Shown here piece by piece: positions 6,741 to 41,540 of a DNA stretch of 64,000 nt. Source of the stretch: Candidatus Gastranaerophilaceae bacterium (GTDB lineage Bacteria > Cyanobacteriota > Vampirovibrionia > Gastranaerophilales > Gastranaerophilaceae); assembly GCA_965647125.1 (NCBI GenBank), contig CBFGCD010000001.1, forward strand, positions 186,449-250,448, in the 5' to 3' direction. The position numbers were made by a program, and so were the translations under genes. The notes beneath the pieces were generated by a model. That model did no database searches. It saw only the letters and a list, made by a program, of their open reading frames with translations, and had not been told where the DNA came from. Numbering within the stretch: position 1 is the stretch's first letter; every line of letters begins with the position of its first letter.

Positions 6741-7268
6741 ATGGAGCAATTAATTGAAAAAGCAAAGAAAATAAAACTTGTGGCGTTTGATGTGGATGGC
6801 GTTATGACGGATGGGTCGCTTTCTTTTACGCAAGACGGTGTTGAAATTAAAACATTTAATGCAAAAGACGGGCTTGGCGTTGTTATGCTTTCGCGTGCGG
6901 GGTTTATAACCTCTATTATTACTGCAAGAGAAAATAATACCGTTAAATTAAGAGCGGAAATGATTGATATTAAAGAATTATACATGGGTCAAAAAAATAA
7001 AACCCAAGCGCTTGAAGATTTAATTAAAAAATATGATTTAAAAAAAGACGAAATTGCCTATATGGGTGATGATTTGCCTGATATTTGCGTTTTGCGCGAG
7101 GTTGGGCTTTCCGTTTGTCCGAATGATGCGGTTTTAGAAGTTAAAAAAATCTGTAATTTTATTTGCAATAAAAACGGCGGCAGAGGCGCTGTGCGTGAAC
7201 TTTGTGATTTTTTACTTGATGCTAAAGGGATAAATTACGACATGATTTCAAAACCAAATAAACAATAA
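6741..7268 (+). CDS. kdsC: 3-deoxy-D-manno-octulosonate-8-phosphate phosphatase (HAD-IIIA, YrbI family)
   Basis: IKLVAFDVDGVMTDGSL (DxD), FNAKDGLGV, IITAREN, AYMGDDLPD, GGRGAVRELCDFLLDAKG. ATG at 6741 (the track TTG at 6723 is less likely). Confidence 0.85.
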   Translation: MEQLIEKAKKIKLVAFDVDGVMTDGSLSFTQDGVEIKTFNAKDGLGVVMLSRAGFITSIITARENNTVKLRAEMIDIKELYMGQKNKTQALEDLIKKYDLKKDEIAYMGDDLPDICVLREVGLSVCPNDAVLEVKKICNFICNKNGGRGAVRELCDFLLDAKGINYDMISKPNKQ

Positions 7269-7353
7269 TTGTTAAAAATTGTTAAAATTATTAATTTTTT
7301 TTATTTATTGGTTTTAATATAATTAATAGTACATAATGTAATCGGGAGGCGAT

Positions 7354-7695
7354 ATGAGAAAAATTGTTACTTTAAGTTTAATTTCATCAATTTTATTATC
7401 AGGAATGATTTTTATTGATGCTAAAGCTTACGATAGAAGTTCTTATTATACTTCAAGCAACACTAAAGGAAAATTTGATTCAAGACAAACCAGAGCATCA
7501 AAAAGAAGACAAGCAAAAGAATTAGAAGCTCAAAATTTGGAAAATCAACAAGAATTTGCCGCAGCAGCAAGAATAGATTACGATAACGGCTATACTTACA
7601 GCAGAATTATTAAACCGTTAAAAAATAATTATCATAGCTCAAATCGTTCAACTAAACCATCTAAATTAAGAAATAATTATTACCAAGGAAATTAA
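7354..7695 (+). CDS. small secreted protein (signal peptide), unknown function
   Basis: GGGAGG SD. N-terminal MRKIVTLSLISSILLSGMIFIDAKA signal-like segment. Polar, Q/N/R/K-rich remainder. Confidence 0.55.
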   Translation: MRKIVTLSLISSILLSGMIFIDAKAYDRSSYYTSSNTKGKFDSRQTRASKRRQAKELEAQNLENQQEFAAAARIDYDNGYTYSRIIKPLKNNYHSSNRSTKPSKLRNNYYQGN

Positions 7696-7701
7696 TAATT
7701 A

Positions 7702-10032
7702 TCAGTCGATATTAATCGGCTCAATGTTAATATATCTGATTGCATCGCGCGCTTTTTGTGCCAATTCGGGATTAATTCCCTCAATTATCATTAATTGCCT
7801 TAAAACATCAATTGCGCGTTTAAAGGTTCGTACAATGTCGCCTTGGGAAAATTCCGTATCTTCAAACATCGCTTCCCAGCTTGCAATAGGGTTATTTTCG
7901 GGATTCATATTTGCGCCAATCCAATATTCAATAAAATAACAAAAATGTGAATTTAAATTCATTTGATTTTCTATTTTGTTATCGCGCTCCAAAAGAAAGA
8001 TTTTTCTTTTTATGTCTTTAATCTGATTAAGCGTTTTTCTGACTTTTTTTGAACAAGGTTTTGAAATTGTTTCGTTGTTTTTTCTGATTTCTTCGCTTTC
8101 AAGTGCGCAAATTACGCTTGCAAGCTCGATTACAGATAAATCATCCAATAATCCCGATAGAATAATTTCACTTAAATAAAGCTCATTTTCGCACCTTAGA
8201 GCCATTGTGATTTTGCCTTTTTCGCTCGGGTAGTCGTCTTTTAAATTTCCTGTTAATTCGAGAATGTTTTTGTGAGCCAGGAACTTTTGCCAATAAATAT
8301 CTTTTTGAAATTCAATTTCTTTATCCAGAAATTTTATCTCTTTTTCAAATCTTTCCTTTAATTCAAGGCTTTTTTTATGTTTTTTGTAGATTTTACAAGT
8401 GTTGCATCCGTAAGATTCAATTCTTTTTTGTAAATCTTTTGATTTGTTATAAAATTCAATAACTTCAGGCGCTGTTGACGGGTTTTTGTATTTTCCTTTT
8501 GCTTGACGTTTGAGGGTTTTGTACAGGGTTCTTAATTGGACAAATTGATTTTTTAATTTGTTGTAATTGTTGAAATCTTCATCCCCCAGATTATATCTGC
8601 AAGAAAAATCGTTTGTTTTTTCAACATCTTCAAGGCGTTTATTTTTTTTATCTAAAAGAGGTGACAAACGGTCGGTTGATGAAAAATAGCCGAATGTTTT
8701 GAAGATTAATTCTTTAGCGGTTTCCATTGAAAATCTTTGCAAAAGATTCAAAACCATTGAATAACAAGGAGAAAACTTGCTTTCTAAAGGATTTGCATCT
8801 GATTTCACAAGAGCCGCAACTTCATCGGGCGTTTGAAAAGGAGTTCCCACAACGACAACATATCCAATTTCATCCATACCGCGGCGTCCTGCTCTGCCTG
8901 ACATTTGAAGAAATTCATTAGCGCTTAGGGTTCTGTGTCCTGAGTCTGTTCTTTTGGAAATTGAGCTTATTATTGTTGTTCTTGCCGGCATATTGATGCC
9001 TGCAGCAAGAGTTTCGGTTGCAAAAACGACTTTTATTAAGCCTTGTTGGAATAATTTTTCAACCAATGCTTTCCATCCGGGAAGCAATCCTGCATGGTGC
9101 GCGGCGATTCCGGAGCGGATTAAATCCAATTGCGGATTGTTCTCAAGATATTGGTTTTCTTTTAAATATTCGTCAATAATTTCATTTGCGCGTTTGTGCT
9201 CATCTTTATTTAAAAGCTCAAGTTTCAGGCATTTTTTTGCGTTTTCATCACATTTTTTTCTTGAAAAAGTGAAATAAATTGCAGGAAGCATGTTTTTTTC
9301 ATTTAAAGCCTCAACAATGTCTGTTGTGGGGTTTTTTATTTTATCTTTTTTGTTGAAATATTTATACTTGCTCTCGGGACGGATTTTTTTGTTTAAATCG
9401 CCCGATGGGGTTAAAAGCGGCAGGATTGTTTTGGGTTTTGAGGAATCATAGTAAAAAAACCTCAAAGGAACAGGGCGAAAATCTGTGTAAACGAGTTCTG
9501 TTTTGGAATGAACCGTATTAATCCAATCGGTTAATTGTCTTGAATTTTGTACTGTTGCGCTTAATGCGATGATTTGAATATTTGTCGGGCAATAAATAAT
9601 ACTTTCTTCCCAAACAGTTCCGCGTGATTCATCGTTCATGTAATGAACTTCATCTAAAACAACATATTTGACGTCTTTTAAATTGTCTTTAACAGAGCCG
9701 AATGTTGTCCCATAGAGCATATTTCTAAAAACTTCCGTTGTCATAACAACAATCTGTGCATCTCTGTTGATTGTTGTATCTCCTGTTAAAAGCCCTGTGT
9801 TTTCTTCGCCATATAATTTTGAAAAGTCGTTAAATTTTTGGTTTGACAAGGCTTTTAAGGGTGTCGTATAAAAAATCCGCTCACCTTTTTCAAGCGCAAG
9901 ATGAATCGCACTTTGCGCAATACAGGTTTTACCTGCGCCTGTCGGGGCACATACTACAACGCTTTTTCCGTTTTGGATGTGATTAATTGCTTCTTTTTGA
10001 AATTCGTCCAGTTCAAATTTAAATCCGTACAT
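7702..10032 (-). CDS. Ski2-like DExH RNA helicase (HelY type, C-terminal DSHCT-like domain)
   Basis: Motif I APTGAGKT, II DEVH, III SAT, HHAGLLP, TETLAAGINMPART, QMSGRAGRRG. C-terminal ...FSQGDIVRTFKRAIDVLRQL is typical of DSHCT. Confidence 0.85.
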   Translation of the reverse strand: MYGFKFELDEFQKEAINHIQNGKSVVVCAPTGAGKTCIAQSAIHLALEKGERIFYTTPLKALSNQKFNDFSKLYGEENTGLLTGDTTINRDAQIVVMTTEVFRNMLYGTTFGSVKDNLKDVKYVVLDEVHYMNDESRGTVWEESIIYCPTNIQIIALSATVQNSRQLTDWINTVHSKTELVYTDFRPVPLRFFYYDSSKPKTILPLLTPSGDLNKKIRPESKYKYFNKKDKIKNPTTDIVEALNEKNMLPAIYFTFSRKKCDENAKKCLKLELLNKDEHKRANEIIDEYLKENQYLENNPQLDLIRSGIAAHHAGLLPGWKALVEKLFQQGLIKVVFATETLAAGINMPARTTIISSISKRTDSGHRTLSANEFLQMSGRAGRRGMDEIGYVVVVGTPFQTPDEVAALVKSDANPLESKFSPCYSMVLNLLQRFSMETAKELIFKTFGYFSSTDRLSPLLDKKNKRLEDVEKTNDFSCRYNLGDEDFNNYNKLKNQFVQLRTLYKTLKRQAKGKYKNPSTAPEVIEFYNKSKDLQKRIESYGCNTCKIYKKHKKSLELKERFEKEIKFLDKEIEFQKDIYWQKFLAHKNILELTGNLKDDYPSEKGKITMALRCENELYLSEIILSGLLDDLSVIELASVICALESEEIRKNNETISKPCSKKVRKTLNQIKDIKRKIFLLERDNKIENQMNLNSHFCYFIEYWIGANMNPENNPIASWEAMFEDTEFSQGDIVRTFKRAIDVLRQLMIIEGINPELAQKARDAIRYINIEPINID

Positions 10033-10051: not shown

Positions 10052-10519
10052 TTATTTTACGCCTGTTGAACCAAAACCTCCGGCTGCTCTTTGTGTATCT
10101 GATAATTCATCTGCGACAACAATTTGCGGTTTTAAAACTTCCATGATTGCCATTTGGGCAATTCTATCGCCTTTTTGAATTGTAAAATCAACTTTTGAAT
10201 GATTGATTAAACCGACACAGATTTCGCCTCTGTAGTCTTCATCAATTGTTCCGATTCCGTTTACAACGGCAATTCCTTTTTTGATTGCCATGCCAGAACG
10301 CGAGCGGATTTGTGCTTCTGTGTTGTGCGGAAGCTCAATCGCAATCCCAGTGGGGATTATTCTGATTTCACCCGCGGGGATGATAATATCTTCATCAATT
10401 GCTGCAACTAAATCCATTGCAGAAGCGCCTTGTGTTTTATATTCAGGGATTGAAACAAAATTGTCCAGCTTTTTAATTTTAAGGGTTAGATTTTGTGTTT
10501 TTTCCATAATTCCTTGCAT
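10052..10519 (-). CDS. dut: dUTP diphosphatase
   Basis: GASAMDL, IPTGIAIELP, RSRSGMAIKKGI, GTIDEDYRGEI, GDRIAQM, RAAGGFGSTG. AAGGA SD 8 nt before ATG 10519. Confidence 0.9.
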   Translation of the reverse strand: MQGIMEKTQNLTLKIKKLDNFVSIPEYKTQGASAMDLVAAIDEDIIIPAGEIRIIPTGIAIELPHNTEAQIRSRSGMAIKKGIAVVNGIGTIDEDYRGEICVGLINHSKVDFTIQKGDRIAQMAIMEVLKPQIVVADELSDTQRAAGGFGSTGVK

Positions 10520-15488: not shown

Positions 15489-17579
15489 ATGAAAAATAAT
15501 AAAATTATAAAATCTTGCTTTTGGATATTGCTTATTTATTCTGTTTTTACAATATTAATAATTTTTTTTAAATATCCTTATTTTTACCAAATCAAAAATG
15601 TTTTTTATTCTTTAAATAATATTGATGTTAATTTGACTCTTGATAAAAAAATAAGTGAAAAACCGCTTGTGTGTTTTGATGATTATTGTTCTGATTTGGC
15701 AAGTTATAATAATACGACGGTTTATAATGTTGAATTTTCTGGCTATGAAAACGGTTTGGATTTTTATTTAAAACCTGTTAAAAAATATTTTGTTGCTTAT
15801 CCTTATGATAAAAAAGATGAATTTTTAAATGCTTTTTCGGATTTATATTTATATAGCGGAGATAAAAAATATTACTTTGCAAAAAATGATTTATTAAAAT
15901 TCAAAACTTCAATTGCGCAAATAAAATTTGATTATTCTCAAGACTCTCATTCGACAAAATATTACCGTATCGAGCTTGAGGGAGTTGAATCTAATTATAA
16001 CGGAGTTTTTAATCATTTTATAATATTTGTTTTAAGTTTATTTTTCAATTGTAAATATTTTATCTTTCCCTATCTTGGGCTGTTGGGGTGTTTTTTGATT
16101 TATTCCTTTTATAGAAAAGATAAAAATAACTGTAAAAAAGAAAATTGTAATTCAAGCCGTCATTATTTTTTGTTTTCTTTAATTTTATTTTTGGGTGTTG
16201 TTTTGAGATTTTATAATATTGAAAATCTGCCCTTGTATCCTGATGAAATTTACACAAAAACGGTTGCAATAAGTAGTTTTCAAAATTGTTTTAAAGATCC
16301 CGGGAATCCTCCTTTGTTTTATTTGATTGAGTTTTTATTTTGTAAACTTTTTAATGATTCTAATTTTTCTTTAAGGTTTTTATCTTTTTTATCCGGTGTT
16401 GGATTTGTTTTGGCGGTTTATTTGTTTTTTAAAAGAATTAATAAAAATCTTGCATTGTTAATGATGTTTTTTGCTTCTTTTAATACAATTAATATAATTT
16501 ATTCTCAAAGTGCAAGATGCTATTCTTTGTGCATGGTAATGTGTGTTTTGATAAGTTATTTTTTCTTGAAATATTTAAAAAATTTAAATAAAAAAGATTT
16601 GATTATTTTTTCATTTTTATCAGTTATTGCAATAAATCTTCATTATTTTTGCGTTGTTTATGTTTTTTCTAATTTTGTTTACGGGATTTTTGTTATTTTT
16701 AAAAATAAAAATCACAAAGAATTGCTTAAATTTGTTTTTGTTAATTTGATTTGCTTTTTGTCTTTTGTTCCTTATTTATTAATTTCTTTTAAAAATTCAA
16801 TAAATCAAGATTTTAATTCCTGGATAGAGCCTTTGAGTTTGATTAAGTTAAAAAGTATTATATCTTCTTATTTTATTAATGAAAAAATATTTTTAATTTT
16901 TCTTTTTATTGTTTTTGTTAATTTGATTTTGATATTTATTAATAAATTTAAAATTAATAAGATAAAAAAAGAAGTTTTCCTTTATTTAATTTTTTCAATT
17001 GTTTTTTCGCTTTTTATTATTTTAATTATTTCGATTTTTGTAAAACCTGTTTTGGATAAAAGAATTTTGTTGAGTCTTTACGGTTTGTTTATTTTGCTTC
17101 AGGGTGTTATGATTTCAGGAGTTTTTGAGTGTAATTTATTAAACAATAAAAATTATTTTTTCAAAAATCTTTATTCAATCTTGCTTTTGTTTTTGTTTTT
17201 TTCAATAACACAGGCAGGCGAGTTTAAAATTACTCATAATCTTAACGGTTATTTTTTCTTTATTCAAAATGATATTAAAAATAATGACTATAATAAAAAT
17301 ATTTATGAAATCCATGGGATTGTTATTCAAGATATAAATTTTTTAAAGAATTTTCCCGAAATTGAAAAATTAAGTGATATAAACTGGCATGTTATAGATA
17401 CGCTTACAAAAGATAAAATAGAAAAAATTTCAAAAAAAGATTTAACAAAATCAAACAAAAAAGTAATTTTATATTTAAGCAATTACGGAACAAGTCTTGA
17501 TTCAAATTATTTTATTGAAAAGCAAATAAAAATTTATAAAACAGGAGCAAATAAAAGCGCAAAAGTTGTGTTAGAATAA
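15489..17579 (+). CDS. GT-C fold membrane glycosyltransferase (family 39/83, ArnT/PMT-like) with extra N-terminal module
   Basis: 696 aa, more than 10 TM. First-loop acidic motif LPLYPDEIYT followed by DPGNPPLFYLIEF. Paralogue of the next gene. Confidence 0.65.
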   Translation: MKNNKIIKSCFWILLIYSVFTILIIFFKYPYFYQIKNVFYSLNNIDVNLTLDKKISEKPLVCFDDYCSDLASYNNTTVYNVEFSGYENGLDFYLKPVKKYFVAYPYDKKDEFLNAFSDLYLYSGDKKYYFAKNDLLKFKTSIAQIKFDYSQDSHSTKYYRIELEGVESNYNGVFNHFIIFVLSLFFNCKYFIFPYLGLLGCFLIYSFYRKDKNNCKKENCNSSRHYFLFSLILFLGVVLRFYNIENLPLYPDEIYTKTVAISSFQNCFKDPGNPPLFYLIEFLFCKLFNDSNFSLRFLSFLSGVGFVLAVYLFFKRINKNLALLMMFFASFNTINIIYSQSARCYSLCMVMCVLISYFFLKYLKNLNKKDLIIFSFLSVIAINLHYFCVVYVFSNFVYGIFVIFKNKNHKELLKFVFVNLICFLSFVPYLLISFKNSINQDFNSWIEPLSLIKLKSIISSYFINEKIFLIFLFIVFVNLILIFINKFKINKIKKEVFLYLIFSIVFSLFIILIISIFVKPVLDKRILLSLYGLFILLQGVMISGVFECNLLNNKNYFFKNLYSILLLFLFFSITQAGEFKITHNLNGYFFFIQNDIKNNDYNKNIYEIHGIVIQDINFLKNFPEIEKLSDINWHVIDTLTKDKIEKISKKDLTKSNKKVILYLSNYGTSLDSNYFIEKQIKIYKTGANKSAKVVLE

Positions 17580-17613
17580 TTTTATTAATAAAATAAAATT
17601 AGGGGAGAAAATA

Positions 17614-19752
17614 ATGAAAAAAGATGAAAAAAAAGCTTCAATTTTTGTGTTTTGTTTTTGGATTCTTTTATTTTTTGCTGTTTTTTCTATTTTCAACATA
17701 ATAAAATTTAACTTTTATAATGCGGATGTAAAATATTCACATTCCGTCTTAGAAGAAGCAAGTATTAATTTTACCTTTAAACAAAAAATAAAATTAGGTT
17801 CAAGTTTTATGGTTTGTTTTAATGATGTTTGTAAAAATCCCGAATCTGATTCATTTTTAAATTCATATTATTTAAAATTCAACAAAGATTTTTTTAATTC
17901 GGATTTTTATTCAAAAAAATTATCAAATATTTCTTTTGTTTTTGATAAAAATGATGAAAAATTAATCGAAAACAATCTAAACGATATATATCTTTATGTT
18001 GGAAATCGTGCATTTAATTATCACAAAAAAGATATAAAAAATTTCAAGAAAAAAACCATAAAAATCAAAAAAGATGATTCAAAAAAAGAAAGCGAATTTG
18101 CCGCTATTGAAATTCCTAATGATTTTAAAACAAACTATAAAGGAAAATTGAATCATTTTATAACTTTGTTTTTAAATCTTTTTTATAATCCTTTAATGTT
18201 TTTAATCCCTTATTTTTGGCTGTTTATAGCGTTTTGTATTTATGCTTTTAAAAAAGATGAAATCAGTTTTGGATTTTTTACTGATTTTTTCAATAAAAAG
18301 AAAACTTATTACTCAATTTTCGGTTTAATAATTTTTATGACTGTTTTAACAAGATTCAATCTTTTGACTTATAATCCTTTGTGGTTTGACGAATTATATA
18401 CAAAAATTATTGCGATTGAAAATTTTAAATCTTGTTTTCAAGACCCGGGCAATCCACCTTTGTTTTTCTTGCTTGAATTTTTTGTTTCAAAAATAAATTC
18501 AAGCGACTTTGCACTAAAGCTCGTACCTTGTTTTTTAGGAATTACTCTGATTGTTTTAATTTATTTGCTGTTTAAAAATATAAATAAAAAACTCGCCCTT
18601 TTTGCAAGCTTTTTTGCGTTAATTAATACGATTTTTATCTACCATTCAAAAGAAATAAGAAGCTCGATTCTTTGTGCTTGTTTAATTGTTTTTTCAATTT
18701 ATGCTTTGTTTGAATATTTAAAAAATGGGAAAAATAAAAATTTTGTTTTGTTCTTAATTTCACAGATTTTATTGATAAACACGCATTATTACCTTGCTAT
18801 TCTTGCTTTTTGTAATTTTGTTTATGGCCTTGCGGGTATTTTTGATAATAAGGAAATTAGAAATAAAAAAAATATTATAAAATTTACTATTGGAAATATT
18901 TTTTGCGCTCTCAGTTTTTTTCCTTATCTTTTAATATCTTATAAATCGGCATTAGGAAAAGAATTTAACAGCTGGATTGGAAGCTTTGATAAATTAAAAT
19001 TTTTATATTCAATTAATGAATATTTTATAAATAAATATATATTTTTATTTTTGGCATTTATTGTATTGATAAATTTGATTTTAATATATCTTCCAAAAGA
19101 TAAATTAAAATTAAAAATAAAAACAAATCCAAATTTGGAAAATTTATATATTTATTTAATTTATTTGATAACACTTTTGTTGATTATAATCAGTTTGATT
19201 TCAATTTTAATTAAACCAATTTTTCACAAAAGACTTTTACTATCAATTTATCCTTTAATTTTTCTTATCGAAACAGTTTCAATTGCTTCTGTTTTAGAAT
19301 TTAAAAAACTTGAAAAATTACCTTTAATTCTAAAAGGGTTTTATTCAACAACTTTGTTTTTCATCTGTATGTTTATAACATATCCAATGCCTTTGGTGAA
19401 AATTTGTAAAGTTGATGATTATATGAATTTTATTTTAAACGATGCTTCAAAATATATTTCCAAAGGTTATGAAGTCCATGGGTTTTTAATTGATCATAAA
19501 GAAGTTTTGACTAAATATCCTAAAGTAGAAAAACTTGATATAAATTGGCATATTATCAAAGGGAATAAAGGTGAATATATTACAAAAATAAAAAAAGAAG
19601 ATTTTATTAATCCGAATAATAAAAATCAAAAAGCTGTTTTGTATTTAAATTCAATCGGTGTTGATTTTGAAAAAGCGCTTTTATATAATCCTAACGCCTA
19701 TATAATTTACACAAATTCTGTTGCAAATGCTAAAATAATTTATGATAACTAA
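17614..19752 (+). CDS. GT-C fold membrane glycosyltransferase (ArnT/PMT-like), tandem paralogue
   Basis: 712 aa. NPLWFDELYT and DPGNPPLFFLLEF. Same N-terminal module as the previous gene (VCFNDVCKNPESD, NDIYLYVGN, NYKGKLNHFI). GGGGAG SD. Confidence 0.65.
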   Translation: MKKDEKKASIFVFCFWILLFFAVFSIFNIIKFNFYNADVKYSHSVLEEASINFTFKQKIKLGSSFMVCFNDVCKNPESDSFLNSYYLKFNKDFFNSDFYSKKLSNISFVFDKNDEKLIENNLNDIYLYVGNRAFNYHKKDIKNFKKKTIKIKKDDSKKESEFAAIEIPNDFKTNYKGKLNHFITLFLNLFYNPLMFLIPYFWLFIAFCIYAFKKDEISFGFFTDFFNKKKTYYSIFGLIIFMTVLTRFNLLTYNPLWFDELYTKIIAIENFKSCFQDPGNPPLFFLLEFFVSKINSSDFALKLVPCFLGITLIVLIYLLFKNINKKLALFASFFALINTIFIYHSKEIRSSILCACLIVFSIYALFEYLKNGKNKNFVLFLISQILLINTHYYLAILAFCNFVYGLAGIFDNKEIRNKKNIIKFTIGNIFCALSFFPYLLISYKSALGKEFNSWIGSFDKLKFLYSINEYFINKYIFLFLAFIVLINLILIYLPKDKLKLKIKTNPNLENLYIYLIYLITLLLIIISLISILIKPIFHKRLLLSIYPLIFLIETVSIASVLEFKKLEKLPLILKGFYSTTLFFICMFITYPMPLVKICKVDDYMNFILNDASKYISKGYEVHGFLIDHKEVLTKYPKVEKLDINWHIIKGNKGEYITKIKKEDFINPNNKNQKAVLYLNSIGVDFEKALLYNPNAYIIYTNSVANAKIIYDN

Positions 19753-31080: not shown

Positions 31081-33549
31081 ATGCAGGTTTCTTATGAATG
31101 GCTTAATGAATTTGTAGATTTATCAGGAATTACTCCTGAAGAAATTGCGCATAATCTCACAATGTCGGGCTTAGAGGTTGAGGAAATTGAATATAAAAAA
31201 CCCTCATTTTCAAATATAAGAACTGCAAAAATAATCAAAATTGACAATCACCCAAACGCAGACAAACTTCATCTTGTGACTTTGAATTTGGGCGAAGCTG
31301 AAAAAGTTGTTGTTTGCGGAGCTCAAAATATTGAAGTTGGTCAAATTATCCCCTATGCTTCAATAGGTTCTAAAGTTTTGGACAGAAAAACAGGAGAACA
31401 GTTTGAGCTTACTCCTGCGGTTATCCGCGGAGTTGAATCACAAGGAATGTTGTGTTCTCAAGATGAACTTGGTTTATCGGACTTGCAGAAAGAAGACGGA
31501 ATCCTTATTTTAAACCGTTTATTTAATGATGATATCAAATTAAACCAGTCTTTAGAAGAATTATTGAACTTGTCTGATGAAATTATTTTTCATACAGCTC
31601 CAACTGCCAACCGCGGCGATCAAATGAGTGTTATCGGAATTGCAAGAGAGTTGAGCGCATTGTTTAATCGTCCTTTAAAATTTGAAAAACCAAAATTAAA
31701 AGAAGATAAAAAAGCAGATTTTGAAGTAGAAATTAAAAATGATGAAATTTGCAAATATTATAGCGTTGCAGTTTTAAAGAACCTTAAAATAAAACCCTCG
31801 CCTGATTTTATTCAAAGAAGAGTTTGTGCTGCCGGCATGCGTCCGATTAATAATATTGTAGATATTACAAATTATGTCATGCTTGAATTAGGCACTCCTC
31901 AACATGCTTTTGATTTTGATAAATTAAACAACTATCTTTGCGTTCGTTATGCACAAGACAACGAAACAATTGTTACGATTGACGAACAAGAGCGTGCGCT
32001 TGTAAAAGATGTAAGCGTTTTAATTGCAACAAAAGAAAAACCTGTCTGTATTGGCGGGGTTTTTGGCGGATTAAATTCTGAAATTGATGAAAATACTAAA
32101 AACATTGCTCTTGAAGCTGCATATTTCACTCCGCACACAAACCGTAAATCCGCACGCAGTGTCGGGTATCGTTCAGATGCCTCTGCGCGCTATGAAAGAG
32201 GAGTTGATATTGAAATGATTCGATATGCTCAATATCGCTCTATTGAATTATTAGAAAAATACGCTGATGCCGAATTTGTGGGAATTTCGCAAACAGGATG
32301 CGACAAAGCTCCCCAAATCGATATAACCTTAAGAAATTCTGAAATAAAAAGAATTATGGGACTTGAATTAGAGCAATCAAGACAGATTCAAATTCTTCAA
32401 AATCTTGGTTTTGAGCTTTTGGGCAAAAATGAACTTGCGGCAAAATTTAAAGTTCCAAGCTACAGAACAAATGATGTTTATCGTGAAATTGATTTAATTG
32501 AAGAAATTTCAAGAATTGTCGGTTTTGATAAAGTTGCTCCGGTTATTCCTAATATTTCCCAAGGTGCTGATATAACTTTTGATACAAAAACAATTAAAAA
32601 AATTAATGAAACAATGCTTGCACAAGGGTTTGATGAAATAATTACAAGCTCTTTAATCGGTGAAAATTTAGCTCAAAGCTTTTATCAACCTTTAGATAAA
32701 GAAAAAATGATTAAGGTTTTAAATGCACACAGCGATGATTTTTCGATTTTAAGACAAAAATTAATGCCCAGCATGCTGGAAGTTGTGAAAAATAATTTTG
32801 ATAACGGTAATAAAAATTTTAGACTTTACGAAGTCGGAAAAACATACGCAAGAACCGCGCAAATTACACAAGACTCTACAGGAGTGAAAGAAGAGCGGAA
32901 ATTAAGCGGCTGTATTTTTGGTAATGTAAATAATTCTTTATTTAATGCGCAAAATCCTGATTTTTTCACTTTAAAAGGCGTTTTAGAATCCTTATTTGAA
33001 AAATTAGGATTATCAAAAAGATTAGTTTTTTCTGTTTTTGATGATGATGACATTAAAAATAATGAATTTTTACATCCCGTTCAAAGTGCCTCAATTTCTA
33101 TTTTGGGTAAAAATAAAAATAAAATCGGCTATTTGGGAAAATTGCATCCGATTTTGGCGGATAAATTAAAATTTAATCAGGATTTATTTATTTTTGAAAT
33201 TAATTTAGAAGAAATAATTTCTTCTCTTGCGCTATCTGTTGCAAAATTTAAAAAACTTCCTGTTTTTGGTGCGGTTAATCGTGATATTGCAATTTTGGTT
33301 GATAAAAATACAACCATTGAAGAAATCAATAAAGCAATCAAAAAAACAGCAGATAAAAATATATTCAAATCATCAAAAGTTTTTGATATTTATACAGGTA
33401 AAGGAATTGAAGAAGATAAAAAATCTCTGGCTTTCAGAATCACACTTCAAGATGAAAATAAAACTTTAACAGATGAAACAATTCAAAACGAAATCAACAA
33501 AATCAAAGCAGGACTTGAAAAAGCGATTGTCGGTTTGAAATTAAGATAA
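31081..33549 (+). CDS. pheT: phenylalanyl-tRNA synthetase beta subunit
   Basis: 822 aa. MQVSYEWLNEFVDL start, tRNA-binding domain (HPNADKLHLV), B3/4 and B5 domains, C-terminal FDVYTGKGI...KSLAFRITLQ. No pheS adjacent. Confidence 0.92.
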   Translation: MQVSYEWLNEFVDLSGITPEEIAHNLTMSGLEVEEIEYKKPSFSNIRTAKIIKIDNHPNADKLHLVTLNLGEAEKVVVCGAQNIEVGQIIPYASIGSKVLDRKTGEQFELTPAVIRGVESQGMLCSQDELGLSDLQKEDGILILNRLFNDDIKLNQSLEELLNLSDEIIFHTAPTANRGDQMSVIGIARELSALFNRPLKFEKPKLKEDKKADFEVEIKNDEICKYYSVAVLKNLKIKPSPDFIQRRVCAAGMRPINNIVDITNYVMLELGTPQHAFDFDKLNNYLCVRYAQDNETIVTIDEQERALVKDVSVLIATKEKPVCIGGVFGGLNSEIDENTKNIALEAAYFTPHTNRKSARSVGYRSDASARYERGVDIEMIRYAQYRSIELLEKYADAEFVGISQTGCDKAPQIDITLRNSEIKRIMGLELEQSRQIQILQNLGFELLGKNELAAKFKVPSYRTNDVYREIDLIEEISRIVGFDKVAPVIPNISQGADITFDTKTIKKINETMLAQGFDEIITSSLIGENLAQSFYQPLDKEKMIKVLNAHSDDFSILRQKLMPSMLEVVKNNFDNGNKNFRLYEVGKTYARTAQITQDSTGVKEERKLSGCIFGNVNNSLFNAQNPDFFTLKGVLESLFEKLGLSKRLVFSVFDDDDIKNNEFLHPVQSASISILGKNKNKIGYLGKLHPILADKLKFNQDLFIFEINLEEIISSLALSVAKFKKLPVFGAVNRDIAILVDKNTTIEEINKAIKKTADKNIFKSSKVFDIYTGKGIEEDKKSLAFRITLQDENKTLTDETIQNEINKIKAGLEKAIVGLKLR

Positions 33550-36217: not shown

Positions 36218-36255
36218 AATTTCGTAAAATGAATTTTGACAATTAAATAATTTTT

Positions 36256-36329
36256 CGGGACGTGGCGCAGCTTGGTAGCGTACTACCTTGGGGTGGTAGG
36301 GGTCGCAGGTTCAAATCCTGTCGTTCCGA
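36256..36329 (+). tRNA. tRNA-Pro (anticodon GGG)
   Basis: Hand-folded cloverleaf: acceptor CGGGACG/CGTTCCG, D arm GCGC/GCGT, anticodon stem CTACC/GGTAG with loop TTGGGGT, T arm GCAGG-TTCAAAT-CCTGT, discriminator A. 74 nt, CCA not encoded. Confidence 0.9.
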
Positions 36330-36340
36330 TTTTTTATTTT

Positions 36341-36417
36341 CGGGATGTAGCGCAGCTTGGTAGCGCACCGTGTTCGGGTCGCGGGGGTCGCAAGTTCGAA
36401 TCTTGTCATCCCGACCA
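36341..36417 (+). tRNA. tRNA-Pro (anticodon CGG)
   Basis: Acceptor CGGGATG/CATCCCG, anticodon stem CCGTG/CGCGG with loop TTCGGGT, T arm GCAAG-TTCGAAT-CTTGT, discriminator A, CCA encoded. 77 nt. Confidence 0.9.
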
Positions 36418-36420
36418 TAA

Positions 36421-36446
36421 AAGGGAATTTTTTATAATTCCCTTTT
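36421..36446 (+). terminator. hairpin/terminator after the tRNA pair
   Basis: AAGGGAATT-TTTTAT-AATTCCCTT followed by TT. Confidence 0.55.
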
Positions 36447-36476
36447 ATTATATAAATTGTATTGCGGGAGTTGAGT

Positions 36477-38489
36477 ATGATAGTTGGTCTTTATCTTCGA
36501 CATATAAAAACATATAAAAATATAAATTTTGTTCCGGTGGGTAATCATAATTTTATAAATTATTTAGGAAAAAACGGAAGCGGAAAAAGTTCAATAATAG
36601 AAGCGTTTGATATTTTTTTTAATGCAGCTGCTCCTGATTATTTAATCAATAAAAGTATAAGTTCAATTTCAAGAAACAGTAATTATCCTTTTTTTGTACC
36701 GATTTTTTTGATTGAAAAAAGTAAAATTGCCACAAGAAACAAAGAAAATTTTAAATTGCTCAGTGATTTATTTTGGAATATTGAGGAAAAAGAAATTACA
36801 AATATTAATCGTAAAACAGGCTCAGAAATTAAGGAATTTTTTAAATTAAGAGATTCAATAAAACAATATAAAGATACTCATTTTTTGGTTATGCTTGGAG
36901 AAACTTCATTCAAAGATGTTTGTGTGCCGTTTTTTCAAAATTATGAAAAATTTAAAAAAGAAATCGGCTATTGCGAGTCAATGCCTGTTGAAGACAAAAG
37001 CGAGGATAATCAAAGCAGCGTTGAGGATGAAAATAAGGAAAGCGAAGAAGAAAAATTTAGAAAGTTTTTAAATGAAAAATTCAGAAGCACTTTAGAAACC
37101 ATTAAAAAAACTTATTCATACGTATATATACCTGTTGAAAGCAGCATAGAAAGTTTTACTAAAATTGAAACAACAAGTATGCAAAAAATCATCGGAAAAA
37201 CATTAAGGGATGAAATTTTACAACTTTTAAACGAAACAAAATTTGAAGATGAGATAAATGATAAGCTGAATAATTACATGGAAGATATTGAAAAAAAATT
37301 AGATGGAGAATATTATTACGATTCAACTAAATCAAATAAAAAATATTTAAAAAACAGCGATTTATTTAATACGATTTTAGAAACCTATTTTAAAATCCGC
37401 GTTTTAAACAAAGGCAACAAAACCAACAATGCAGGTAAAAAAATAAGCGAATTAAGTGCGGGTGAAAAAAGGCAGGCTTTGTTGGATTTATTACATGCTT
37501 TTTTGACAGACGGACAAGAAAGGGAAAAATATACTATAATCGGCATTGATGAACCTGAAAACTCTTTGCATACCGGGCTTTGTTTTGAACAATTTGAAAA
37601 ATTGAAAGAAATTTCAAAAAATTATCAGATTTTTGTAACCACCCATTGGTATGGTTTTTTACCGGCAATCAGCGAGGGGGTGGGGCATTTTTTAAATAAA
37701 ACAAAAGAAGATAAAGTCGAGTTTGAATCTTATGAATTGTGTAATTACAGATCGCAAATCAAACATGATATGGTCCAAAATAAAGGAAAAATGCCGCATG
37801 ATTATCAGCTGAAAAGCATGAATGATTTGGTTCAGTCAATATTTCACTCTATCAGGCATGAAAATCCTTACAATTGGCTTATTTGCGAGGGATTGAGTGA
37901 AAAAATATATTTTGATTTTTTATTTAAGGATGAAATTAAAAACAAAAATCTTAAAATTTTACCAATGGGCGGCCAAAATGCTGTTGTCAGATTATACAGG
38001 TATCTTGCACTTCCTATTGCCGAAATGAAAGATACTCCTGAGTTTAAAGGAAAGGTATTTTGTATTATTGATACTGATAACCAAATTAATGGTAACGATA
38101 TAGGTGATATTAGCACCAATTTAAAAATAAAACGTTTTTTAAACGAAGATGAAAACAACAAAACCGCATTAGTTTTGTTAAACAATGGAAAATATACACA
38201 AACCGAAATAGAAAATGCACTAAATCCGACTATTTTTAGAGAAACATTGGAAAATTTGACAAATGAATCTAAATACAAAATTAATGATGAGCTTGATTTA
38301 ACTAAATTGAAAAATACGGATTTTTCCGCAAGTTTTAACAATTATCAAATTAAGCATTATTTTAATGAAAACAACGGAGAAAATAAAATAAAGTTTGCTG
38401 AAAAATATATCGATATCTTAAAGAATAAAGAAAACATGAAAGAATATATACCTGATTGGGTAAAAGAAATCAAAGATTTTTTTAATTAA
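36477..38489 (+). CDS. OLD-family-like ABC-ATPase/Toprim fusion protein (class-1 OLD-like or fused PARIS AriA-AriB-like); putative defence nuclease
   Basis: ATG 36477 with GGGAG SD. Walker A GKNGSGKSS, long K/E-rich helical insert, LSAGEKRQ, Walker B IIGIDEPENSLH, FVTTHW. C-terminal LICEGLSEKIYF, ILPMGGQNAV, FCIIDTDNQ (Toprim Glu and DxD). Confidence 0.7.
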   Translation: MIVGLYLRHIKTYKNINFVPVGNHNFINYLGKNGSGKSSIIEAFDIFFNAAAPDYLINKSISSISRNSNYPFFVPIFLIEKSKIATRNKENFKLLSDLFWNIEEKEITNINRKTGSEIKEFFKLRDSIKQYKDTHFLVMLGETSFKDVCVPFFQNYEKFKKEIGYCESMPVEDKSEDNQSSVEDENKESEEEKFRKFLNEKFRSTLETIKKTYSYVYIPVESSIESFTKIETTSMQKIIGKTLRDEILQLLNETKFEDEINDKLNNYMEDIEKKLDGEYYYDSTKSNKKYLKNSDLFNTILETYFKIRVLNKGNKTNNAGKKISELSAGEKRQALLDLLHAFLTDGQEREKYTIIGIDEPENSLHTGLCFEQFEKLKEISKNYQIFVTTHWYGFLPAISEGVGHFLNKTKEDKVEFESYELCNYRSQIKHDMVQNKGKMPHDYQLKSMNDLVQSIFHSIRHENPYNWLICEGLSEKIYFDFLFKDEIKNKNLKILPMGGQNAVVRLYRYLALPIAEMKDTPEFKGKVFCIIDTDNQINGNDIGDISTNLKIKRFLNEDENNKTALVLLNNGKYTQTEIENALNPTIFRETLENLTNESKYKINDELDLTKLKNTDFSASFNNYQIKHYFNENNGENKIKFAEKYIDILKNKENMKEYIPDWVKEIKDFFN

Positions 38490-38571
38490 ACATTTTACAA
38501 ATTTTTGGTTCAAAAAATATTTTTATGAGTGTTTTATAATTAAATACAAATAAAACAGAAAGGTTATAAAC

Positions 38572-38786
38572 ATGGATTTCAGGGTAAACAGTTTTTCAAT
38601 CAGACGACCGAATTTTAAAGGAAGCGTTGCTGTCGTTGGATAGACAGAACGGTAATTAACGTTAAAAGTGCAGGTTATGAAGAGCTTGACGAAGCAATTC
38701 AAAAAGAAAAAGAAACTGATTTTTCAAGCAACACTAATCTGCTTGGTGATTATATGACAGGAAAAATGGATAAGGAAGTATTTTAA
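38572..38786 (+). pseudogene. frameshifted small ORF (about 71 codons), unknown function
   Basis: GAAAGG SD 8 nt before ATG 38572. MDFRVNSFSIRRPNFKGSVAVVG stops at 38641. The open frame continues in another phase (WIDRTVINVKSAGYEELDEAIQKEKETDFSS...KEVF). One extra T near 38636 would join them. Confidence 0.35.
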
Positions 38787-38794
38787 TTAAAATA

Positions 38795-39611
38795 TTGCTG
38801 CAAAAATTAAATTCTCATAAATTTAAAACAAATTTCCCAATTTTTTTAATTGCGGGTTTAATTTTCTATTCATTTTTAATTGAGCCCAAAATGCTTCAAG
38901 TCGTTAATTATTCAATTAAAGATTCATCATTATCAGGAATAAAGCTTGTTTTAATCGGAGATTTACACCTTAAACCCAGCGAGGAAAAAAGGCTTTATAA
39001 AATTGTAAATAAAATAAATCTTCAAAACCCTGATGTCGTGCTTTCTGTTGGAGATTTTGTGAACGGACATAGTGAAAAAAAGCACTTTGCCGATTGATAA
39101 AATTGCTAACGAACTTAAAAAAATAAAATCAAAAAATGGCTTTTATACTGTTTTGGGAAATCATGATATTTGGATTAATGAGGATGAAATCACAAGCAGA
39201 TTTGAACAAAGCGGCATAAAGGTTTTGAAAAATGAAAATATTCCTGTAAAAATTAAAGATAAAAACTTATATATTGCAGGAGTTGAGGATTTAACAACAA
39301 AAATTCCCGATGTTGATAAAGCGCTTAATGATGTAAAAAGTTCAACGATATTATTAACCCACAACCCTGACATATTCCCCGAGATTCCCCAAAACGTTAA
39401 TTTAACACTTTGCGGTCATTTGCATGGCGGACAGGTCAGATTGCCGTTTTTAGGCGCTGTTGTTACTCCCTCAAGATATGGCGACAGATATTCAAAAGGC
39501 TTGATTGTAGAAAATAATAAAAAATTAATCGCAACAAAAGGACTTGGAACAAGTATCCTGCCTCTTCGTTTTAATTGTGTGCCTGAAATTGTTGTGATTG
39601 AATTTTTATAA
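38795..39611 (+). pseudogene. YaeI-type membrane-anchored metallophosphoesterase, interrupted by a frameshift in an A7 run
   Basis: Fragments 38795..39097 (LIGDLHL, SVGDFVNGH) and 39072..39611 (VLGNHD, LTHNPD, CGHLHGGQ) together give all the calcineurin-like motifs. The frames join at A7 (39075..39081) if read as A6 or A9. Confidence 0.75.
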
Positions 39612-39666
39612 CTTAAAAATTAACTTTCTTGCAAACTTATAATTTGTGGCTTATTATGTTGTTTGT

Positions 39667-40587
39667 ATGGACTGTAAAAAAAACAGAAGAAATTTTTTAA
39701 AAGGGTTTTTTGGAACTTATCTTGCCTTGAGCAGTTATTTTTCTTTTAAATATTTTACCCAAAGCAAAAACAGCAGCAAAATAATAAACAATACAAAAGA
39801 AAAAGCTTTAAATGTTGTTCAAATTCCAATTGTCTATAATTGTAATTTGAATTGTGCTTATTGTGACCATTTTGCGCCGATTGCGCCTAAATATCAAGTA
39901 AGCGTTGAAAAATTCAGCACAGATTTAGACCGCCTTTATAAAGTTACGCAAGGAAAAGTTAAAACAATCTGGCTTTTGGGTGGAGAACCTTTGCTGCACA
40001 ATAAAATCTGCGATTTAATAAAAATAACATCTTCAAAATTTCAAAATTCAAAAATAGCAATAACAACAAACGGCTTATTGCTGGATAAAATGAATGATGA
40101 ATTTTGGCAGGTTTTAAAAGATAAAAACGTTGAAGTTAATGTTGAAAATTATATTTTAAATAAAAATATTATAAAGACGGATAAAATTTTTCAAAAAGTT
40201 AAGGAATTTCATTGTAATTTAAATATTAATTTTCCAAAATATGAATTTAGAAAAGCAAGTTTATCAAAAAAGCCAAAATATGACAAAAATAAAAGATTTA
40301 GTGCCTGTAAATGTAAACAATGGCCGATTTTTGATGATGGAAAATTTTATTGCTGTGCAACAATAAACGGGGTTGAAAAATTTTTCAATAAAAAATTTCC
40401 AGATAATAAAATTCCGATTTCGTCTTGTGATATTTTAGATTCATATCAAATTAATTCAATTGATGAAATTATAGAATTTTATCAAAAACCTAAAAATATG
40501 TGTGCGCATTGCGGATATTTTCAAACAAAACCTTGGAAACTATCGCAAAATAATATTTATGAATGGTTTGAAAAAAGCGGGGAATAA
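39667..40587 (+). CDS. radical SAM protein with twin-arginine-type N-terminus and C-terminal Cys cluster (paralogue A)
   Basis: MDCKKNRRNFLKGFFGTYLALSSYFSFKYF; CX3CX2C in IPIVYNCNLNCAYCDHF; GGEPLLH; C-terminal Cys ACKC, YCC, MCAHCG. ATG 39667 chosen by analogy with the paralogue (track: GTG 39646). Confidence 0.75.
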   Translation: MDCKKNRRNFLKGFFGTYLALSSYFSFKYFTQSKNSSKIINNTKEKALNVVQIPIVYNCNLNCAYCDHFAPIAPKYQVSVEKFSTDLDRLYKVTQGKVKTIWLLGGEPLLHNKICDLIKITSSKFQNSKIAITTNGLLLDKMNDEFWQVLKDKNVEVNVENYILNKNIIKTDKIFQKVKEFHCNLNINFPKYEFRKASLSKKPKYDKNKRFSACKCKQWPIFDDGKFYCCATINGVEKFFNKKFPDNKIPISSCDILDSYQINSIDEIIEFYQKPKNMCAHCGYFQTKPWKLSQNNIYEWFEKSGE

Positions 40588-41540
40588 TGAAAAGGAGAAA
40601 TTTTTTAAAAGGCTTATTCACTTCATACGCAGCAGTTTCAACGTATTTTTCTTTTAAATATTTTAATGAAAAAAATGTTGAAAAGCCTTTTGATAATAAA
40701 TCAAAGGAAGATGATGAAATTAAAAATGCGATTGACAAAAACGCTAAATTTCTTAACATGGTTGAAATTCCGATTGTTTATCATTGTAATTTAAATTGTG
40801 CACATTGTGACCATTTTTCTTCGATTGCTCCAAAATACATCATGCCTGTTGAGGTTTACGAAAAAGATGTTAAAAAACTTTCGCAAATCACAAAAGGAAA
40901 ATTAAAAGAATTAATAATCGTTGGCGGCGAACCTTTTTTGCATGATAAAATATCCGAAATTATGAAAATATCAAGAAAATATTTCCCGAAAACAAGAATT
41001 GAAATTCTGACAAATGGAACTTTGCTTGAAAAACAGCCTGACGAGGTTTTTCTAACTGCTAATAAAGAAGATGTGGGAATTTATATAAGTTATTATCGGA
41101 CAGGTAAAAAGCTTTTTGATTTTGAAAAAATTACTGAAAAAATTGATAAATTTAAAGTTAAAATAAGAATAAGCTATCCAAAATTTGAGTTTCAATTAAT
41201 GAATCTTGAAAAGACAGCAAAACACGACATCAAAAAACGCTACACTCCTTGTTATTCAAAACTATGGCCTATTTTAGACAACGGTAAATTTTATGTGTGT
41301 TCGACTGTTAACGGTGTTGATAAATTTTTTAACAGAAAATTTGAAAATGATAAAATCCCTTATTCAAACGATGATGTTTTAGATATTCATAAAATTTCAA
41401 CACTTGACGAGTTATTAGATTTTTATTCAAAACCAAAAAAAATGTGTGCATATTGTAATTATTATATTTCCGATAAAGCACAATGGCAAAAAGCTCGCTT
41501 CAGCCCTTATGAGTGGCTAAAAAAGCTCCCGAAAGCTTAA
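40587..41540 (+). CDS. radical SAM protein with twin-arginine-type N-terminus and C-terminal Cys cluster (paralogue B)
   Basis: MKRRNFLKGLFTSYAAVSTYFSFKYF; IPIVYHCNLNCAHCDHF; GGEPFLH; C-terminal PCY, YVCS, MCAYCNY. Start overlaps the paralogue A stop (TAATG). Confidence 0.8.
   Translation: MKRRNFLKGLFTSYAAVSTYFSFKYFNEKNVEKPFDNKSKEDDEIKNAIDKNAKFLNMVEIPIVYHCNLNCAHCDHFSSIAPKYIMPVEVYEKDVKKLSQITKGKLKELIIVGGEPFLHDKISEIMKISRKYFPKTRIEILTNGTLLEKQPDEVFLTANKEDVGIYISYYRTGKKLFDFEKITEKIDKFKVKIRISYPKFEFQLMNLEKTAKHDIKKRYTPCYSKLWPILDNGKFYVCSTVNGVDKFFNRKFENDKIPYSNDDVLDIHKISTLDELLDFYSKPKKMCAYCNYYISDKAQWQKARFSPYEWLKKLPKA

Follow-up and report, generated by a model that had tools for sequence, protein, structure and literature searches.

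Solitary proteins of class 1 of the OLD (overcoming lysogenization defect) family, such as phage P2 Old, Thermus scotoductus OLD, Vibrio cholerae Vc OLD and E. coli YbjD, combine an N-terminal ABC ATPase, interrupted by an inserted helical domain, with a C-terminal Toprim domain. They are encoded by single genes in variable neighbourhoods and, within this major anti-phage family, are the group about which least is understood. Documented defence is limited to two of them, whose substrates differ: P2 Old cuts the anticodon stem of tRNA (PMC12445682) and requires residues of both its ATPase and its Toprim (PMC7049728), while Vc OLD, which requires its Walker A, Walker B and DxD motifs, nicks DNA and acts by abortive infection (PMC12392090). 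Here we describe a gene of this general type at positions 36477–38489 (forward strand) of a 64,000-nucleotide stretch, hereafter the window, from Candidatus Gastranaerophilaceae bacterium (assembly GCA_965647125.1, contig CBFGCD010000001.1). We are fairly confident that it encodes an accessory OLD-family defence nuclease; most likely, it is a solitary gene that was acquired horizontally and acts against phages.

Other described systems share parts of this architecture. GajA of Gabija (class 2), a DNA-cleaving enzyme, also joins an ATPase to a Toprim with helical elements beyond the Toprim core, and it is the top full-length fold match of the window protein; its partner GajB, a UvrD-like helicase, has no counterpart adjoining the gene in the window or at the homologue loci that we examined. 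Class 3 comprises the type I-B retrons, whereas the window contains neither an open reading frame (ORF) for a reverse transcriptase (RT) nor an msr/msd non-coding RNA (ncRNA). PARIS (class 4), made up of AriA and the tRNA-Lys-cleaving AriB, likewise couples an ABC ATPase to a Toprim and AriA models match the ATPase half of our protein, but the Toprim found here is not of the DUF4435/AriB kind. Given the lack of GajB, of RT and ncRNA and of DUF4435, the gene does not belong to class 2, 3 or 4.

Two further systems come close through their nuclease domain. The first is AbiL (AbiLi and AbiLii) with its relative RloAB; the Rlo genes, 'restriction-linked ORFs', were discovered in restriction-modification (R-M) loci (PMC13064643). 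These systems have an AbiLii/RloB-type Toprim, as does the window protein, and are encoded by two genes, whereas every complete family member seen here is one polypeptide. The second is retron-Eco2 (Ec67), whose Toprim is an RNase (PMC12405507). It provides the best fold match to the C-terminal part of our protein and the same residue pattern (E-x3-[DE], DxD, [ST/DE]-x-E and, further along, a Lys within a helical segment). There, however, the Toprim is fused to the RT and restrained by multicopy single-stranded DNA, while here it is fused to an ABC ATPase, with no RT or ncRNA and an identity of ~14%.

The initial annotation of this DNA, made from its letters alone, had placed the gene in class 1 or among fused PARIS genes. 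By gene context the first assignment stands, since the gene is solitary and its neighbourhood variable; its sequence, on the other hand, puts it in a separate clade of invariably fused proteins of ~660 aa, whose Toprim appears closer to AbiLii/RloB.

Architecture and proposed active site of the ATPase-Toprim protein

The ORF ends at 38489 on the forward strand and offers two possible starts, TTG 36462 and ATG 36477. ATG 36477 is the true start, because 31 of 31 aligned homologues begin with MI(I/V)GL and a GGGAG ribosome-binding site (RBS) lies 6 nt upstream. At 2 kb in a genome of 31% GC, and with full-length homologues at E-values from 1e-153 down to 0, the ORF is far beyond chance. Its features are the following (all on the forward strand; AF2, AlphaFold2):

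36466-36470, +: Shine-Dalgarno-like GGGAG, 6 nt before the ATG and inside the insert described below (read from the sequence)
36477..38489, +: complete OLD-family ATPase-Toprim gene, 670 aa, stop codon included (ORF list, homologues, family alignment)
36477..37736, +: ABC-type ATPase half, aa 1-420 (Pfam, hhalign to the P2 Old family, AF2 secondary structure)
36567-36593, +: Walker A GKNGSGKSS, aa 31-39, with K37 (motif check)
37452-37475, +: signature LSAGEKRQ, aa 326-333 (motif check)
37536-37571, +: Walker B/D-loop IIGIDEPENSLH, aa 354-365, with D358, E359 and H365 (motif check)
37632-37649, +: H-loop FVTTHW, aa 386-391, with H390 (motif check)
37782..38486, +: Toprim nuclease half and C-terminal helical domain, aa 436-670 (Pfam/PADLOC matches, AF2 model)
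37878-37913, +: Toprim Glu motif LICEGLSEKIYF, aa 468-479, with E471 and E475 (motif check)
37956-37985, +: GG motif ILPMGGQNAV, aa 494-503 (motif check)
38058-38084, +: DxD motif FCIIDTDNQ, aa 528-536, with D532/D534 (motif check)
within 38202-38228, +: candidate metal-B pair E577/E579 (spacing and conservation)
38382-38408, +: K637, nearly invariant, in the C-terminal helical domain (family alignment)

Every motif on which the initial annotation had based an ABC-ATPase/Toprim fusion is present. Moreover, in an alignment of 32 family sequences (the query and 31 homologues), K37, S327, D358, E359, H390, E471, D532, D534 and E579 are invariant, H365 and K637 are conserved in at least 90% of the sequences, and position 577 is occupied by D, E, S or T. 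Between Walker A and the signature lies an insertion that is mostly helical in the AF2 secondary structure (about aa 85-310) and presumed to be the dimerisation domain. It had been described as rich in K and E; these residues are indeed enriched, though only modestly (26% in aa 61-325 versus 22% in the whole protein).

For comparison with a solitary OLD that defends, the old gene of phage P2 was fetched, a 30-sequence P2 Old family profile was built, and this was aligned with our family profile by hhalign. The two families match with 92.3% probability (E 5.6e-7) over 218 columns, in an unbroken alignment that runs from the C-lobe of the ATPase to the first half of the Toprim through the signature, Walker B, D-loop, H-loop, linker helix, Toprim strand 1 and GG motif. 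It pairs D358/E359, H365, H390, E471 and E475 with D299/E300, H306, H332, E398 and E402 of P2 Old; mutational work has shown five of these six P2 Old residues (D299, H306, H332, E398 and E402) to be needed for killing (PMC7049728). As the alignment crosses the domain junction, the fusion of ATPase and Toprim appears homologous to that of the OLD proteins. Divergence is too great for an alignment in the second half of the Toprim, where hhalign detects no similarity to P2 Old; with single sequences, hhalign aligned only the ATPase motifs.

Published templates were used to propose an active site: E377/D431/D433, D381/S478/E480 and R487 in Thermus OLD; E400/D455/D457, E404/T506/E508 and K562 in BpOLD; E374/D460/D462, D378/S513/E515 and K562 in Eco2 (PMC12405507). 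By analogy, metal site A would consist of E471 with D532/D534, metal site B of E475 with [D/E/S/T]577-x-E579, and the role of catalytic lysine would fall to K637 in the C-terminal helical domain. A lysine supplied by the helical domain is what is found in class 2 OLDs and Eco2. The class 1 enzymes differ on this point: the Arg/Lys that follows their metal-B Glu (R487 in Thermus OLD, K550 in P2 Old; PMC7049728) is not conserved in our family, where position 588 (R in the query) is K, A, Q, I, E, N, L, S or M across the alignment, and Thermus OLD is devoid of the ~90-aa helical domain that follows the Toprim here (PMC7049728). Further differences from class 1 concern length (670 aa versus 586 in P2 Old and 512 residues in the Thermus OLD chain 6p74, that is, 80-145 aa longer here) and motif spacing (K48/D313/D468/D470 in Vc OLD versus K37/D358/D532/D534).

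The occupied site, its empty alleles and the loci of relatives

Conspecific Gastranaerophilales assemblies were found by exact-protein look-ups and compared with the window by blastn and junction alignment. Five of them (L092, L096, L098, L099 and L102) have an empty site between flanks that are ~98-99.5% identical to the window. In L092 (GCA_948742005.1; flanks 99.4-99.5% identical) the order is tsf, tRNA-Pro, tRNA-Pro, hairpin, 26 bp and metallophosphoesterase gene, and the same empty junction is present in L096 (GCA_950097155.1) and in three assemblies of independent read sets (L098, L099 and L102), with a right flank 97.9% identical. The elements of the occupied site in the window are:

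36255-36330, +: tRNA-Pro GGG (ARAGORN; Rfam 58 bits)
36341-36417, +: tRNA-Pro CGG (ARAGORN; Rfam 58 bits)
36420..36445, +: hairpin AAAGGGAATT-TTTTAT-AATTCCCTTT after the second tRNA (read from the sequence; identical in L092, L096, L098, L099 and L102)
36461..38641, +: strain-specific insert of 2181 bp, which replaces 26 bp, GAAAGTTATCCTAATGTTGTTTTAAA, of the empty allele (blastn, junction alignment)
38642..38840, +: right edge of the variable region (blastn and translations)

The pair of tRNA-Pro genes directly upstream, already seen in the initial annotation and called by both ARAGORN and Rfam, is host DNA: it occurs in the occupied and the empty alleles (L092) and forms the left border of the variable site, the last base common to both before the insert being 36460. 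The hairpin, likewise host DNA common to both alleles, looks like a terminator in sequence, and the terminator scan did not call it. As for the insert, it contains only the RBS, the OLD-like ORF and, 3' of the latter, a further 152 bp, with no integrase and no att-type repeat in a repeat search. A tRNA-targeted island with att repeats or an integrase was also considered for this site and rejected, as none was found.

At the right edge, over 99 bp from 38642, the window is 92.9% identical to the empty alleles, compared with 97.9-99.5% in the flanks, and the 100 bp at 38741-38840 are missing from those alleles; together these two tracts complete a start-less ORF remnant (38608-38787) ending in ...KMDKEVF*. 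This pattern suggests that the tract came from a divergent relative through recombination, or else that the empty alleles arose by deletion. Start-less ORF fragments occupy the interval between the OLD gene and the next gene (38573-38840; ...IDRTVINVKSAGYEELDEAIQKEKETDF...KMDKEVF*) and have no homologue in any fetched locus.

The tsf protein assigns the window to Candidatus Gastranaerophilales, gut Melainabacteria that are not photosynthetic. Beyond the species, 18 related Gastranaerophilales species conserve rpsB-tsf, followed by neither this gene nor the tRNA pair. The gene is thus missing from five conspecific assemblies and 18 related species, and strict synteny in all relatives, which the initial annotation had named as the mark of a housekeeping gene, clearly does not hold. 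The exact protein is absent from a collection of 15 billion proteins, and an exact-pattern scan of JGI metagenomes for the left flank of the locus gave no hits. At the locus of the closest homologue (L116; 73% protein identity), nucleotide similarity is confined to the RBS and ORF and starts at 36467.

Composition gives no sign of transfer. The gene has 27.7% GC against a window mean of 31.1% (standard deviation 3.5%, 2-kb windows), about 15% of windows are equally low, and its GC content at third codon positions equals that of the neighbouring genes. An anomaly in GC or codon use was therefore rejected, the gene being indistinguishable from the rest of the window, and the low-GC argument of the initial annotation falls.

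The contigs of seven independent conspecific assemblies (L093, L094, L095, L096, L098, L099 and L102) end inside or next to the tRNA-Pro pair, whose members are 79% identical direct repeats 85 bp apart. These breaks may be due to the repeat, or to strain heterogeneity at the site.

A full-length search returned 679 homologues; nearly all of the best 120 span the query completely (100% coverage), with 43-73% identity and lengths of 630-680 aa. Using a profile of the C-terminal domain in an exhaustive HMMER search, we obtained 349 hits among 1.84 billion representatives of 50%-identity clusters (287 below 1e-10), and in nearly all complete hits this domain lies at the end of a protein of 630-680 aa. 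Natural two-gene forms were sought among the short hits and rejected: those inspected were fragments (P0122 and P0133 start inside ATPase motifs) or, for P0140, a scaffold-gap artefact. The clade is small, sharply bounded and always fused. Its members carry database names such as 'AAA family ATPase' and 'predicted ATP-dependent endonuclease of OLD family', and neither their accessions nor their signature motifs were found in Dataset EV1 of the published OLD phylogeny (classes 1-4, clades U1-U11; PMC12796447), which is a sample, so this absence is only suggestive.

The hosts are Gammaproteobacteria (Vibrio, Aliivibrio, Photobacterium, Shewanella, Moritella, Aeromonas, Francisella), Campylobacterota (Aliarcobacter), Melainabacteria, an Aenigmarchaeota metagenome-assembled genome and bacteria that read UGA as Gly. 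Concerning the latter, P0109, P0114 and P0119 have W at many positions where G is invariant in the family (GxxGxGK appears as WENGIWK); their hosts probably use genetic code 25 (Gracilibacteria/Absconditabacteria), the genes having been called with the wrong code. In Aliivibrio fischeri (P0067 cluster), the family gene occurs on one contig as separate products of 416 and 251 aa, and the 251-aa product on 11 contigs; some strains thus carry a copy that is disrupted and probably in decay.

Seven loci of closer homologues were examined, and in each the gene is solitary, with neighbours that differ every time and no helicase, RT or Toprim partner. We then took 80 further metagenomic loci, clustered their flanking ORFs and scanned those tightly linked to the family gene. 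Among 215 neighbours of 82 loci, no partner recurs apart from R-M and BREX (bacteriophage exclusion) genes. On an Acinetobacter plasmid (L090), a full-length homologue of 35% identity is flanked by the pglX and pglZ genes of a BREX-1 operon, and the order pglX-gene-pglZ is repeated at a metagenomic locus (L152). The family gene directly follows pglX at L163 and L153, and follows genes for PglX-like or type IIG methyltransferases at L143 and L155 and for a type III restriction-like enzyme at L192. At L172 it sits between hsdM and hsdS of a type I R-M system (MTase_I 1.7e-176; Specificity_I 3.5e-65). In total, at least 8 of the 52 loci with at least 1 kb of upstream flank place the gene inside or beside R-M or BREX operons, a placement that is classic for defence genes.

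Other relatives are found on mobile DNA: homologues occur on plasmids, flanked by IS30 insertion sequences, and a Shewanella member lies in an integrase-flanked island at tRNA-Ser. In this island (L109), the family gene is preceded at 42 bp, on its own strand, by a gene for a DUF2971 protein (7030-7959), which is not seen at the other loci and might be a co-travelling defence-related gene. Phages do not seem to be the main carriers of the family. A tblastn search of 50,697 phage records gave no match, and apart from three distant partial hits in IMG/VR, the phage and virus matches were phrog_4747 of PHROG (full length at 2e-15) and, by fold, a giant-virus protein; on the strength of the phage-genome searches, we conclude that the family is not mainly phage-borne.

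The tRNA neighbourhood, which the initial annotation had treated as supporting context, is not a trait of the family: a tRNA lies within 500 bp at 1 of 82 other loci. At that locus (L001; 58%-identical homologue), a tRNA-Arg(tct) gene (10060-10133) lies 62 bp downstream. In L116, where the contig begins within a tRNA gene, the 3' end of that tRNA (1-45) precedes the family gene by ~255 bp; its long variable arm was recognised by eye, ARAGORN making no call on the truncated gene. Adjacency to tRNAs is thus limited to the window copy and, among its three closest relatives, to L116 and L001, and was rejected as a family feature. Likewise, neither the ORF after the L116 homologue nor the remnant after the window gene matches anything else, so that there is no conserved downstream partner.

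The kind of Toprim and the competing explanations

Profile scans locate the ATPase half clearly (Pfam AAA_15 at 1.5e-20 and AAA_21 at 1e-11, over aa 30-390). The Toprim is fainter: in the query protein OLD-like_TOPRIM scores 19.4 bits at aa 467-534, under the Pfam cut-off of 23.2. The C-terminal domains (aa 436-670) of 26 family members were also scanned against Pfam and PADLOC models. OLD-like_TOPRIM matches 26 of 26 (best E 6e-8; 22.8 bits for the domain of the query), PADLOC AbiLii also 26 of 26 (best 1.4e-8) and Pfam RloB 10 of 26 (best 2.5e-6), while Pfam DUF4435 and PADLOC AriB match 0 of 26 at E-values up to 1. These profiles identify it as an OLD-like/AbiLii/RloB kind of Toprim and not one of the DUF4435 kind. 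With the query itself, the PADLOC models that respond include Old (6.8e-9), whose match extends into the Toprim, retron I-B ATPase-Toprim (1e-6) and AbiLii (1.7e-6); on the ATPase half AbiLi matches weakly (5.5e-5), and GajA (E 0.009) is restricted to the Walker A region.

Protein Data Bank (PDB) sequences were searched with three queries: the protein, its family profile and the C-terminal profile. The matches were confined to SMC/cohesin heads at Walker A and one marginal AriA/Ec78 match at Walker B, with nothing for the Toprim, which for this reason cannot be classified by sequence alone. The full-length AF2 model has a mean predicted local distance difference test score (pLDDT) of 77, and its best PDB fold matches are GajA (8u7i_A, 1.3e-9; 8x5i, 5e-8) and Thermus OLD (6p74, 8e-7), both ahead of SMC/Rad50 heads; the template modelling (TM) scores are low (0.25-0.3), which is to be expected when several domains are flexibly arranged. 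The structure comparison proposed in the initial annotation thus agrees with its OLD assignment. The model of aa 436-670 (pLDDT 89.8, predicted TM score 0.87) shows a five-stranded core, with four β-strands before and after the DxD region and one short strand, and flanking helices, followed by the helical domain of ~90 aa. The Toprim of retron Eco2 (9lm3_A) is its best fold match (E 2.8e-3, probability 0.95, ~270 aligned columns).

Several points weigh against an OLD-type defence nuclease. The Toprim half is very diverged, without a sequence-level match to solved structures and, in the query, just under the Pfam threshold; the C-terminal profile alone matches P2 Old weakly (E 0.04), and the candidate roles of E577/E579 and K637 derive from how these residues are spaced and conserved. 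The window copy lies outside any defence island, among housekeeping or cell-envelope genes. A promoter/terminator scan gave counts at the locus that do not exceed those of shuffled sequence, and the insert seems to lack a promoter of its own; if expressed, the gene may be transcribed by read-through from the tRNA genes or from a TATAAA-like sequence at the junction. Moreover, literature searches found no experimentally tested member of the clade, and OLD proteins are not always defensive, as Cran1 of Sulfolobales is an essential cell-cycle protein (PMC12796447).

The alternative that survives best, which we regard as possible though clearly the less likely explanation, is that the protein is not a strict class 1 OLD but a fused version of the two-gene AbiL or RloAB systems, in which, as in PARIS, an ATPase sensor would release or activate a Toprim acting as RNase or tRNase. 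The AbiLii and RloB matches of the C-terminal domains point this way, as do the faint AbiLi match, the RNase-active Toprim of Eco2 as best fold match of the nuclease half, and the conserved Lys of the C-terminal helical domain in place of the basic residue of class 1. Distant members inside type I R-M (L172) and BREX operons are also placed as Rlo genes are, whereas the window copy adjoins no R-M genes. On the other hand, the protein is always a single polypeptide, and the continuous alignment with P2 Old over the junction argues for an ancestral OLD-type fusion rather than a recent union of AbiLi and AbiLii; besides, no mechanism has been established for AbiL and RloAB themselves (PMC13064643).

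A bolder and rather unlikely extension would make the clade (~290-350 clusters) a separate, unclassified OLD class: a fused RloAB/AbiL-type module with a class-2/Eco2-like Toprim, a Lys from the C-terminal helical domain and no helicase or RT partner, which would cut RNA or tRNA and not DNA, and would spread as a bare cassette of RBS and ORF, without a recombinase, into sites near tRNAs and within R-M/BREX operons.

A single-chain PARIS, that is, a fused AriA-AriB whose ATPase senses a phage anti-restriction protein and releases a DUF4435-type Toprim that cuts tRNA-Lys, was the option towards which the initial annotation leaned; it is now largely refuted and very improbable. Fused PARIS genes do exist (PMC10568477), PADLOC AriA matches the ATPase half at 1.2e-20, and AriB is among the fold matches of the C-terminal model. 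However, the AriA match covers residues 31-390 with a profile length of 373, against 374 for the generic AAA_15, and for this reason does not discriminate; the family profile finds the AriA chains of the PDB at E 0.049, in the Walker B region only; and to the scans without DUF4435 or AriB is added the Foldseek comparison with AriB (8v46_D), at E 0.21 and probability 0.30 versus 0.95 for the Eco2 Toprim.

We give equally little credit to a selfish or addiction module, or an anti-plasmid or anti-transformation nuclease, kept for its own mobility or toxicity. The bare insert without recombinase and the homologues on IS30-flanked plasmids would suit such an element, and Toprim nucleases can target plasmids, as in Wadjet (PMC12405507), but no antitoxin-like partner or recurrent neighbour accompanies the gene, a location inside BREX and R-M operons is a typical mark of phage-defence genes, and all characterised solitary OLDs act against phages (PMC12392090, PMC12445682).

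Least credible of all is a housekeeping ATPase-nuclease of genome maintenance (RecF/RecN/SbcC type or Cran1-like), for which the weak N-terminal SMC_N, RecF and SMC-head matches, the neighbours pheT, rpsB, tsf and tRNAs, and the essential Cran1 (PMC12796447) could be cited, but which is refuted by the presence/absence pattern, by the rarity of the family and its patchy spread over phyla and domains, by members in BREX/R-M operons, plasmids and integrase islands, and by the restriction of the SMC/RecF matches to the Walker A region.

Neighbouring genes and biological meaning

Upstream of the tRNA-Pro pair lie pheT, rpsB and tsf. Downstream of the OLD gene, 152 bp of non-coding sequence and the ORF remnant precede a metallophosphoesterase gene, two radical-SAM genes, a pyruvyl-transferase gene and a DUF374 gene. 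The window ORF list shows no adjoining helicase, RT or other partner gene, in agreement with the initial annotation, which had seen neither GajB nor a second gene; an Rfam scan of the whole window detected the two tRNAs only and no retron ncRNA. One neighbour has its reading frame interrupted:

about 38891-39611: metallophosphoesterase gene, frameshifted by an extra A in the homopolymer 39074-39080

The window has 7 A at 39074-39080, where L092 and L096 have 6, and the intact gene of relatives encodes 239 aa; the A7 run splits the gene into one ORF ending at 39097 and another starting at 39072. Either the homopolymer was misread in sequencing, or the gene has recently become a pseudogene. The claim that both downstream neighbours are decayed therefore reduces to this frameshift and to the start-less remnant at 38608-38787.

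The radical-SAM genes (39646-41540) are tandem paralogues of 313 and 317 aa with ~65% nucleotide identity, each product having an N-terminal Tat-like RRNFLKG; they are followed by the pyruvyl-transferase (CsaB-like) and DUF374 genes, and the cluster is kept in conspecifics. On the other side, pheT is intact in the window (31081-33549, 822 aa) and called as two genes in L092 (1967-4368; 209 and 570 aa), where its alignment with the window shows a gap of ~60 bp at 31689-31744, probably an assembly or indel difference. In the stretch with the lowest GC of the window (15489-19752; 21-24%), two paralogous genes in tandem code for multi-pass membrane proteins of ~700 aa, which by eye resemble glycosyltransferase-39/ArnT-type enzymes.

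Returning to the accessory OLD-type nuclease, the core proposal of an anti-phage or abortive-infection gene held in those of the proposed checks that were run, from the Pfam matches on both halves to the distribution among strains. By analogy with characterised members, we infer its defence function, trigger, abortive outcome and substrate. The ABC ATPase, dimerised probably through the helical insertion, would bind and hydrolyse ATP and act as sensor or switch. Upon infection, it would license the two-metal Toprim nuclease (E471/D532/D534; E475 and E577/E579; probably K637). The nuclease would then cut nucleic acid and halt phage replication, probably killing the infected cell. As regards the substrate, RNA or tRNA is slightly favoured by the Eco2 fold and by the affinity to AbiLii/RloB, and DNA is equally possible because Vc OLD, Thermus OLD and GajA act on DNA; we hold no real preference.

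The general type of the gene is already known and the protein would not surprise a specialist, although its clade is uncharacterised. It would represent one more defence gene in the sparse catalogue of Gastranaerophilales and no new category of system. Its locus offers a natural comparison, as near-identical strains of an uncultured Melainabacteria species of the human or animal gut differ by this gene. Moreover, it points to a compact clade repeatedly found within BREX and type I R-M operons. These operon contexts and the clean strain-level indel make it a convenient test case, one that could tell DNA from tRNA as the target of a fused AbiLii/RloB-type Toprim.

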